Assembly (NCBI GenBank): GCA_965203775.1
Contig: OZ241913.1
Coordinates: 1,081,390-1,145,389, forward strand
Reading direction: 5' to 3'
Length of the DNA: 64,000 nucleotides
Source of the DNA: Dehalococcoidia bacterium
GTDB taxonomy: Bacteria > Chloroflexota > Dehalococcoidia > Bin125
The translations under genes were made by a program, and so were the position numbers. Positions within the stretch are counted from its first letter, which is position 1. Every line of letters begins with the position of its first letter. The notes under the pieces are model-generated. The model saw only the letters and a program-made list of their open reading frames with translations. It was not told the DNA's origin and did not search any database. Of this stretch, positions 54,035-55,703 are shown in pieces.

Positions 54035-55703
54035 ATGGCCGGCGATCGGGCGAACCAGTGGGTCAACCAGCTCTACTTCGGGGACAACCTCGATGTGCTG
54101 CGCGAGCACATCCCCGATGAGTCGGTGGACCTGATCTACCTCGACCCGCCGTTCAACTCCAACGCGACCTACAACGTGCTCTTCCGCGAGCGCTCCGGCG
54201 AAGAGTCTGCCGCCCAGATCACCGCCTTCGAGGACACCTGGCAGTGGAGCATCGACACTGAGCGGGCCTATCGGGAAGTTGTCATAAGCGGGGGGGGGGG
54301 GGGCAAAATTAAGCGAACTCCTAGAGGCGCTGCGCGCGTTCCTCGGCCAGAACGACATGATGGCCTACCTCACGATGATGGCGCAGCGGCTCGCGGAGCT
54401 GCGCCGTGTGCTCAAACCAACCGGCAGCATCTACCTGCACTGCGATCCGACGGCGAGCCACTACCTCAAGCTGCTGATGGACGCGGTGTTCGGGCTCGAG
54501 AATTTCAGAACGGAGATCGCCTGGAAGCGCACGAGCGCGCACAGCGACACTAGGCAAGGCCGACAGCAGCACGGGCGTATTCACGACGTCTTGCTGTTTT
54601 ATTCCAGCGGCGACGATCTCACATGGAATCCGATTTACACACCCTACGCCCCCGAATACGTAGAACGGTCCTATCGACGTGTCGAACCTGAAACAGGCAG
54701 ACGCTATACGCTGGACAACATCACCGGGCCCGGAGGCGCTGGCAAAGGGAACCCGCGGTACGAGGTGATGGGAGTCACTCGGCACTGGCGGTACAGCCGT
54801 GAACAGATGCAGCAGCTGATCGACGAAGGGCGAATCGTTCAAGCTCGCCCCGGCGCCGTGCCGCGCTACAAGCGATACCTCGACGAGATGCCGGGCGTTC
54901 CGCTTCAGGATTTCTGGTCAGATATCGGACCCGTTGCCTCGCAGGCAAAAGAACGTCTTGGGTTCCCGACGCAGAAACCGGAGGCGCTGCTGGAGCGGAT
55001 CATCAGCTCGAGCAGCAACGAGGGCGATGTCGTGCTCGATCCGTTCTGCGGCTGCGGGACCGCCGTCGCTGTGGCGGAGCGCCTGAAGCGGCGCTGGATC
55101 GGGATCGACGTTACGCACATCGCGATCTCGCTGATGCGCTATCGCCTGCACGATACGTTCGGCGACGATCTCAACCCGTATGACGTGATCGGCCTGCCGC
55201 AAGATGCGGCCAGTGCGCGGGCTCTCGCCGAAGAGAGCGAGCACGACGGGCGCTATCAGTTCGAGCACTGGGCGCTCGGCTTGGTCGACGCGCGCCCGAG
55301 CGGCAAAAAGGGCGCCGATTCGGGCGTCGACGGCGTGATCAACTTCTTCGACGACGACAGCGGCAAAGCCAAGCGGATCATCGTGCAGGTCAAGAGCGGC
55401 AAAGTGAACCGCGGGCAGATCGCGACGCTGATCGGCGATATGGAGAGCCAGGAAGCCGAGTTGGGCATCTTCATCACGCTCAACAAGCCGAGCCGGCCGA
55501 TGCTCCGGGCGGCGTTGAGCGCGGGCGTCTACACGCCGGAGAGTCTGCCCGACGACAGCTACCCGCGCGTGCAGATTCTGACCGTTGAGGATCTGTTGGA
55601 CGGCGCGCAGCCGGAGTATCCGCGCTTCGCCGCGCCGCCAACCTTCAAGCGCGCCTCGCGGCGCAAGCGCACACAAGGCTCGCAGCCGCGGCTGACGGAC
55701 TGA
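54035..55703 (+). pseudogene. orphan beta-class N4/N6 DNA methyltransferase fused to a C-terminal Mrr_cat-like nuclease domain, interrupted by a G14 tract (54290-54303) that separates the DPPF half from the FxGxG half
   Basis: ORF1 54035..54553 carries LIYLDPPFNS (motif IV). ORF2 54357..55703 carries LDPFCGCGT (motif I) and [11 protein letters not shown] ... IIVQVKSGK ... [10 protein letters not shown] (Mrr-like D-(D/E)xK). One fewer G would fuse the frames. Confidence 0.7.

Follow-up and report, generated by a model that had tools for sequence, protein, structure and literature searches.

A length-variable poly-G tract as a likely contingency switch in a solitary methyltransferase-nuclease fusion gene of Dehalococcoidia

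A gene for a predicted DNA methyltransferase (MTase) fused to a nuclease-like domain was analyzed in a 64,000-nucleotide stretch of the genome of an uncultivated Dehalococcoidia bacterium (contig OZ241913.1 of assembly GCA_965203775.1), referred to here as the window, whose G+C content is 69%. The gene occupies positions 54035-55703, downstream of a VOC/glyoxalase gene (53574-54011) and upstream of a crotonase gene (about 55786-56538), and is divided between two reading frames by a homopolymer of G. No res, helicase or specificity gene stands beside the MTase in the window, nor in any orthologous locus examined, which confirms an earlier preliminary description of this DNA that had noted VOC and crotonase genes on the two sides and no adjacent restriction or specificity gene. 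The features of the locus are collected in Table 1.

The uninterrupted run of 14 G, read directly from the window, spans exactly 54290-54303, in the 5′ sixth of the gene. Sequence and translation agree that it lies precisely at the junction of two frames one nucleotide apart, as the preliminary description had stated. The downstream frame is open from 54288, with its first ATG at 54357 and its stop codon at 55701-55703; the mechanically listed open reading frame (ORF) within it (54357-55703, 448 aa) has a product identical to the database entry P0127. The upstream ORF continues 196 nt beyond ATG 54357. Removal of one G in silico yields a 555-aa protein, and addition of two (G16) yields one of 556 aa, matching the roughly 555-aa fusion that had been predicted for G13 or G16. 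Lengths that join the two halves are referred to below as ON and all others as OFF. Runs of at least 14 G are expected 0.003 times in a 64-kb window under a zero-order model and 1e-4 times under a first-order model, and four were observed; the long runs measure 14, 15, 15, and 18 nt, with none between 7 and 14. No sequencing platform calls the exact length of a homopolymer reliably, and the ON/OFF state of the window assembly depends on that length; any single tract length may be off by one, and it is not claimed that the population of the window organism is truly OFF.

The G13-repaired protein matches the Pfam family N6_N4_Mtase (PF01555) over residues 31-360 (E 1e-39; 136.9 bits against a cut-off of 26.7), and it is also matched by the PADLOC models MTase_II and MTase_III, down to E 2.5e-64. 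Motif IV is followed by a target-recognition region and then by motif I, the order of beta-class enzymes. D37-P38-P39-F40 of motif IV and F337, C338, G339, C340, and G341 of motif I are invariant across 41 homologues. Within residues 424-522, two nuclease families score above their cut-offs, namely Mrr_cat (PF04471; 35.5 bits, cut-off 21) and, with the higher score, NA-iREase1 (PF22722; 40 bits, cut-off 27). The latter, the best Pfam match of the C-terminal domain, is a family named inactive, and the catalytic residues are conserved here nonetheless: in the homologue alignment, D432, Q451, and K453 show no variation and E410 hardly any (at least 90% conserved), preserving the E..D..QxK signature as GxDG ... 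VQVKSG. The proposed division into a DPPF motif-IV half and an FxGxG half with an Mrr_cat-like domain is therefore borne out by the motif positions and by Pfam matches above gathering scores.

An AlphaFold (AF2) model of the protein has a mean pLDDT of 76 and contains a nuclease core of the order alpha-beta-beta-beta-alpha-beta (H408-416, E433-437, E446-453, H459-471, E476-481). Foldseek matched the model with probability 1.00 to EcoP15I Mod, H. pylori Mod, CcrM, M.BceJIV, M.RsrI, and M.MboIIA. By both sequence and fold, the closest solved structures are the Type III Mod subunits of H. pylori (6k0w) and EcoP15I (4zcf), followed by the beta-class N6-adenine enzymes CcrM, M.BceJIV, M.RsrI, and MboIIA. 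MspJI, a D..QxK enzyme, is among the Foldseek matches with E about 1e-4, which is weak support for the nuclease domain in a whole-protein search dominated by the MTase. Judged from sequence and modeled fold, the 555-aa product is a Type III Mod-like beta-class DNA methyltransferase with a C-terminal Mrr/MspJI-like nuclease domain, and its DPPF motif indicates that it probably targets N6-adenine. The label "orphan" in the preliminary description is a misnomer, since the nuclease-like domain is fused to the MTase; the protein is instead a candidate single-chain restriction-modification (R-M) enzyme, in which nuclease activity cannot be taken for granted, given the name of the best-matching Pfam family. 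In the AF2 model, the glycine run encoded by the tract (GGGG, residues 86-89) forms a loop joining helices 73-85 and 90-103, and homologues are variable at this site in sequence and differ in length by two residues (VVKDGDKL, VVTRTGGKL, VVTQGPEKL), so that in-frame changes of three G are probably tolerated.

The same tract was found at different lengths in close relatives, each assembly giving one consensus length per population. Alleles with flanks identical to those of the window, GTCATAAGC-Gn-CAAAATTAAGC, carry G14 (window), G8 (L001), G11 (L169), G12 (L170), and G13 (L168). A second flank type, GAAGTGC-Gn-ACCTAGG, carries G11 (L004) and G13 (L172); a third, AAGCGGC-Gn-ACCGATTTAGGC, carries G13 (L003); and a fourth, ACGC-Gn-TAAATTAGGC, carries G11 (L002) and G13 (L171). 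Further lengths deduced at the protein level from N-terminal database fragments are G15 and G12 (window type), G14 (second type), and G13 (fourth type), so that the relatives span 8 to 15 G. The metagenome allele L168, with G13, is in frame, and its 555-aa product (P0122) has a junction identical to that of the in-silico G13 repair. In a census of about 16 tract-bearing alleles, the ascertainment of which is not fully unbiased, one is ON, seven have one G in excess, seven have two in excess (equivalent to one short), and one is unresolved. The database also contains many other short N-terminal fragments from the wider family; their breakpoints are scattered and without G runs, and they were set aside as unrelated truncations.

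Between the window and L001, no substitution was found outside the tract over 53958-56676, and the tract itself differs (G14 versus G8). Over the adjoining segment 51351-53957, the two strains differ by about 78 substitutions (about 2.8%), the boundary of divergence falling within the end of the VOC gene, and 57100-58723 is again identical. This mosaic pattern points to a recent event that took in the MTase locus, either homologous recombination or a sweep. Allele types of the tract are also discordant with the gene tree: L168 has flanks of the window type, yet is closest overall to L004, and the tract segment therefore appears to have recombined between alleles.

At the DNA level, the orthologues L005 (94% amino acid identity) and L166 (85%) have no G run at the site, nor does a third for which only the protein is available (P0129), nor any of 160 more distant homologous loci examined. 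A scan of JGI metagenomes returned only homologues of at most 67% identity, and a scan of genomes yielded paralogues or remote homologues (up to 81% identity), none of them with the tract. Because the tract-free orthologues and the 160 distant loci lack a G run, the tract is, on this comparison of sequences, a derived feature of one genus-level clade.

Apart from the tract, the gene is intact throughout the clade. None of 12 orthologues has a stop codon or indel in the last 228 nt before the tract or the 1383 nt after it. Nei-Gojobori ratios of nonsynonymous to synonymous substitution rates (dN/dS) are 0.029 for window-L170 (58 synonymous and 6 nonsynonymous differences), 0.018 for L169-L170 (61 and 4), and 0.043 for L002-L171 (46 and 7), both members of each pair being tract-bearing and out of frame. 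Across the clade, the ratio for the MTase is 0.07-0.13, with dS up to 0.9. For the SDR, VOC, and crotonase genes that flank it in those genomes, values of 0.03-0.09 were obtained, the one exception being a close crotonase pair (0.21). These substitution patterns indicate that purifying selection acts on both MTase halves with the same strength as on the neighboring metabolic genes. With dN/dS of 0.02-0.13 and no second lesion in 12 orthologues, the gene is not decaying; both halves appear to have been kept functional over the long term in lineages with an OFF consensus, which is incompatible with decay. An OFF consensus combined with an intact gene is the normal picture for contingency genes.

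The G14 run is therefore considered likely to act as a hypermutable simple-sequence contingency tract in the functional gene of a solitary, single-chain R-M-like enzyme. The locus has a frame-setting repeat of at least 9 nt within an ORF, length polymorphism between the same flanks, and both ON and OFF alleles; at 14 nt, the tract exceeds the 9-nt mononucleotide criterion applied to phase-variable mod genes (PMC5909438). The phase-variable switch put forward in the preliminary description thus gains support from the polymorphic tract, from a natural ON allele with the predicted junction, and from purifying selection on both halves. Slipped-strand mispairing at replication would alter the G count; at G13 (or 10, or 16), the halves would be joined into the 555-aa enzyme, and at other lengths translation would end soon after DPPF, once a stretch of about 5-90 out-of-frame codons, its length set by the frame, had been read. 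OFF cells would then contain only a DPPF-bearing N-terminal fragment (84-191 aa in the alleles read) lacking the half that binds S-adenosylmethionine (AdoMet). The equal division of OFF alleles between the two wrong frames (seven versus seven) fits random slippage. Switching would occur within populations and be reversible; the ON enzyme would be expected to methylate, and perhaps cut, DNA. The benefit may be a form of bet-hedging in which the enzyme's cost is weighed against phage defense or epigenetic heterogeneity, and the predominance of OFF alleles could plausibly stem from the fused nuclease being costly or posing a risk of self-restriction.

Four considerations weigh against this interpretation. 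Differences between assemblies, each of which is a single consensus, may partly be homopolymer miscalls. The one ON allele among about 16 is fewer than neutral drift predicts (binomial P = 0.014 versus p = 1/3), so the extra assumption is needed that OFF is favored. No methylation or cleavage data were found in the literature for any member of the fusion family. Finally, how a cell would survive when the fused nuclease turns ON over an unmethylated genome is unexplained.

The first of these points leads to the alternative that the gene is truly intact, with a true G13, and that its 13-15-nt G run was miscounted in sequencing or assembly. Every platform miscounts long homopolymers, partial compression could be at work in three closely related single-contig assemblies that give 8, 11, and 14, and purifying selection of housekeeping strength fits a gene that is simply ON. 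However, miscounting of a fixed ON length would produce neither a 6-nt scatter nor such a scarcity of ON calls: of the independent alleles, about 15 in 16 are out of frame, in both wrong frames and within a range of lengths from 8 to 15, and they come from assemblies with names of varied types. Going by contig names alone, out-of-frame tracts of 11-13 G occur in assemblies with short-read-style scaffold names (L003, L004, L170, L172) as well as in hifiasm-style "ptg" contigs (L002, L171), and the tract is also present in single-contig (contig_1) genomes (window, L001, L169). A length error is accordingly regarded as unlikely, and it would touch the state of the window only, leaving the tract and its variability in place.

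OFF templates might alternatively be expressed by recoding, with RNA polymerase slippage or ribosomal frameshifting on GGG codons and the tract tuning dosage. The dominance of an OFF consensus, yet with dN/dS as low as in the neighboring genes, would be accommodated in this way, as would the AT-rich rare codons that follow the tract in all tract-bearing alleles and the TAA that directly follows the run in L002 (GGG-TAA-A), resembling a +1 shift site. Selection is reported to be able to maintain frameshifted homopolymer genes rescued by transcriptional slippage (Wernegreen et al. 2010, as cited in PMC3711429). A conserved +1 state, as in programmed +1 frameshifting, seemed compatible with the first ten alleles (6:3) and with the four long tracts within the window, all of which are +1, and was dropped when additional N-terminal-fragment alleles brought the ratio to 7:7; the equality of the wrong frames leaves no conserved direction of shift. 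In addition, no frameshift-stimulating structure or known RNA element was detected at the tract, the RNA 3′ of it being no more stably folded than shuffled controls (z = +0.83) and matching no Rfam element, and the documented cases of bacterial transcriptional slippage involve A/T runs (PMC3711429). Recoding is considered improbable.

Two further alternatives are very poorly compatible with the data. In the first, the 448-aa ORF would be translated from ATG 54357, either as a stand-alone C-terminal product or as part of a two-piece enzyme with the N-terminal peptide. Gene callers do consistently report this ORF from a conserved MMAYL, but the fragment lacks the catalytic DPPF, no Shine-Dalgarno-like sequence precedes ATG 54357 (unlike ATG 54035), the MMAYL methionines are conserved in tract-free unsplit homologues too and so are not an evolved start, and extension of the upstream ORF past the internal ATG makes translational coupling impossible in the window; this possibility has very little probability. 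The second, that the frameshift simply killed the gene and left a functionless tract, which the preliminary description had named as one case that would refute it, could draw on the out-of-frame consensus of the window and most relatives and on a solitary, dispensable-looking gene amid metabolic genes, but is strongly disfavored, and hardly credible, given low dN/dS in both halves, a natural ON allele (L168/P0122), and not one second lesion in 12 orthologues over 1.6 kb even though dS among tract-bearing alleles reaches 0.9.

In this 69%-GC lineage, each of the long G tracts is bordered by rare codons rich in A and T. At the window MTase, the surroundings read ATA AGC-Gn-C AAA ATT AAG; other MTase alleles have Gn-TAAATTAGG or Gn-ACCGATTTAGG, and the RCC1 genes described below have Gn-ATAAATTCC, their tracts being followed by ATAAATT. 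The codons after the MTase tract are AAA TTA, GAT TTA, or GAC CTA, and tract-free orthologues encode the same residues with the GC-rich AAA CTG or AAG CTC. Short direct repeats flanking the tracts (TAAGC...TAAGC at the MTase, CCCGATC...CCCGATC at the RCC1 genes) were considered as marks of insertion and were treated as probable coincidence: both TAAGC copies are ancestral coding sequence in tract-free orthologues, and CGATCG-type palindromes are locally frequent in the RCC1 genes.

Table 1. Features of the methyltransferase locus, of the rest of the window, and of tract surroundings in related contigs (window positions unless a contig is named).
Feature	Position	Strand	Remark
Shine-Dalgarno-like GAGAGGG	54022..54028	+	ends 6 nt before ATG 54035; read from sequence
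Methyltransferase N-terminal coding segment	54035..54289	+	residues 1-85; ORF list and translation
Motif IV DPPF	54143-54154	+	catalytic; inside N-terminal segment
G14 homopolymer, frame-setting	54290..54303	+	G13, G10 or G16 = ON; G14 = OFF, one G in excess
Downstream frame, +1 nt relative to start frame	54288..55703	+	target-recognition insert, motif I, C-terminal nuclease-like domain
AdoMet-binding motif I FxGxG (F-C-G-C-G)	55044..55058	+	residues 337-341; after motif IV
Mrr_cat / MspJI-like PD-(D/E)xK domain	55248..55601	+	Pfam match
Putative catalytic E of Mrr_cat domain	55263-55265	+	
Putative catalytic D of Mrr_cat domain	55329-55331	+	
Putative catalytic Q-V-K of Mrr_cat domain	55386-55394	+	
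AT-rich tract surroundings, window	54280-54325		
AT-rich tract surroundings, L002	2930-2965		
AT-rich tract surroundings, L003	480-520		
AT-rich tract surroundings, L004	480-520		
RCC1-associated G tract	13533-13547		G15
RCC1-associated G tract	34442-34456		G15
RCC1-associated G tract	48832-48849		G18
REP-like copy	55701-55749		one, inverted; directly after MTase stop
REP-like copies	56731-57030		six, tandem; after crotonase/tRNA region
Further REP-like sites	about 6000-6400, 11870-11970, 16460-16610, 19560-19680, 24520-24680, 25240-25390, 32620-32990, 40250-41100		
tRNA gene	56573-56646	-	Rfam RF00005, 70.5 bits; between crotonase gene and REP-like array

The fusion belongs to a large family, with at least 8000 homologous proteins at E <= 1e-20. 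The same three Pfam domains occur in 120 of the 120 matches listed, most of which are about 550 aa long, with a few 448-aa split forms. Matches in genomes come mostly from metagenome-assembled genomes (MAGs) of Dehalococcoidia and other Chloroflexota, often with two copies per genome, and also from Acidobacteriota, Latescibacterota, and further phyla. Full-length relatives with 42-49% identity stand alone on rhizobial and actinobacterial plasmids, where they are annotated merely as DNA methyltransferases. The architecture is thus very common, in a family for which no characterized member was found in the literature; a literature search on the fusion of Mrr_cat with N6_N4_Mtase likewise returned nothing relevant. 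Many Dehalococcoidia MAGs carry at least two paralogous MTase-Mrr_cat fusions at distant chromosomal sites, for instance L006/L166 (OZ251529.1), L013/L017 (OZ242281.1), L019/L027 (OZ247431.1), L025/L038 (OY762444.1), and L042/L072 (OZ241912.1). Among these paralogues, the G tract was acquired solely by the copy between VOC and crotonase.

In public assemblies, the orthologous loci share the order SDR - VOC - [ThuA] - MTase - [PIN/AF2212] - crotonase, the bracketed genes being variable. An AF2212-like/PIN (VapBC-type) pair is inserted beside the MTase in L003 (1984-2616), L004 (1982-2242), L166 (4867-5496), and L171 (172-804), and a ThuA gene is inserted upstream of it in L002 (1855-2673) and L166 (2176-2994). 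The SDR-VOC-MTase-crotonase region of the relatives is thus a hotspot for small insertions, and both the PIN/AF2212 pair and ThuA are missing from the window. A REP-like palindromic element with the core GTCATTCCTGCGCAGGCAGGAACCC is dispersed through the window, and the number of its copies is not the same in strain L001, which is 98.5% identical to the window (20-nt indel at 56947-56966).

The other three long G tracts of the window are associated with RCC1 genes, as the preliminary description had remarked; the presence of G15-G18 tracts at three 5′ ends stands, and Pfam confirms only the first of the genes (RCC1_2, E 6e-93 for 13523-15310), the other two being placed by sequence similarity. 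All three tracts share the context ggcgctt(g/a)cccgatc-Gn-ataaattcctcccgatcgcc and lie just 5′ of a signal-peptide-like start. Their lengths are all multiples of 3. A TTG located 10 nt before the tract is in frame, the upstream GTG/ATG starts are out of frame (+1), and both the actual start codon and the ON/OFF state are hence ambiguous. In the second paralogue (34432-36249), TTA replaces TTG, no listed ORF of at least 200 aa crosses the tract region, and the first start in the signal-peptide frame is a GTG at 34603, 3′ of the signal-peptide-like segment. Taken as sequence features, the three RCC1 tracts suggest a wider use of poly-G by the organism. More tentatively, and with some doubt, an uncultivated high-GC Dehalococcoidia could be pictured as running a poly-G phasome, in which the MTase fusion switches stochastically alongside several secreted, eukaryote-like RCC1-repeat proteins of that genome gated by G15-G18. 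If so, this would amount to bet-hedged phage defense and/or an epigenetic phasevarion.

The mechanism proposed for the MTase is itself known, from Type III mod phasevarions and from cj0031. What is new is its occurrence in this gene family and in this lineage (Dehalococcoidia MAGs), and no previous account of contingency loci in Chloroflexota was found in the literature. The genomic background is less exceptional than the preliminary description had implied, as mod genes with simple sequence repeats (SSRs) are known from environmental species (PMC5909438). Phase variation by simple repeats has mostly been studied in small-genome, host-adapted pathogens; if the switch is real, contingency-locus biology extends to environmental or symbiotic bacteria, with a many-allele case in a 69%-GC member of the Chloroflexota and in a very widespread, uncharacterized methylase-nuclease fusion family. 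The lineage may be host-associated, since some samples and MAGs with orthologues bear names that hint at a sponge or coral origin. A beta-class MTase-Mrr fusion gated in this way would represent a new class of phase-variable R-M enzyme, and its natural ON/OFF pair could be used to work out the role of the family. For annotation, the calls of a "448-aa methyltransferase" and a "90-aa hypothetical" protein in these MAGs would be halves of one switchable gene.

One of the closest known systems is the Type IIG enzyme Cj0031, which has an N-terminal nuclease and a gamma-class MTase, is about twice as long as the present fusion, and comes from a low-GC host-adapted pathogen. As described by Anjum et al. 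2016 (PMC4889913), Cj0031 of Campylobacter jejuni is a phase-variable Type IIG R-M enzyme with an intragenic poly-G gate, the ON and OFF variants of which differ in site-specific methylation and in phage restriction; this poly-G-gated, single-chain mechanism is established (PMC6321876). As in Cj0031, MTase and nuclease parts share one polypeptide, here as predicted domains, and a poly-G run within the ORF sets the frame. Unlike Cj0031, the present protein combines a beta-class, Type III Mod-like MTase with a C-terminal Mrr_cat domain in a 69%-GC uncultivated Dehalococcoidia host, and beyond the MTase fold no sequence relationship between the two was shown. The Type IIG arrangement of N-terminal PD-ExK nuclease, gamma-class MTase, and target-recognition domain is not the one found here, although a Type IIG-like mode of working is possible.

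With phase-variable Type III mod genes such as modA and modH, the fusion shares a beta-class N6_N4 MTase, a central target-recognition insert, and a frameshifting repeat within the ORF. SSR-bearing Type III mod genes have been cataloged, including those of environmental species (Atack et al. 2018, PMC5909438), in a survey that covered Type III mod genes in REBASE; the present family lies outside it. In contrast to Type III systems, in which mod is paired with an adjacent res (encoding a superfamily 2 helicase-nuclease), the MTase of the window and of the orthologous loci examined has no res neighbor and instead carries a small fused nuclease domain, and the plasmid homologues are solitary too. 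The C-terminal domain resembles the Mrr and MspJI Type IV endonucleases in its Mrr_cat match and E..D..QxK signature, but comprises the catalytic core only, with no N-terminal domain for binding modified DNA; target choice would therefore come from the MTase part, and dependence on modification is not implied. At the level of general concept, a coding homopolymer at the 5′ end acting as a reversible mutational switch corresponds to the homopolymeric-tract gene switches of prokaryotes (Orsi et al. 2010, PMC2831843). By analogy, the locus would work like the switches of Type III mod genes and Cj0031, but it belongs to neither family.

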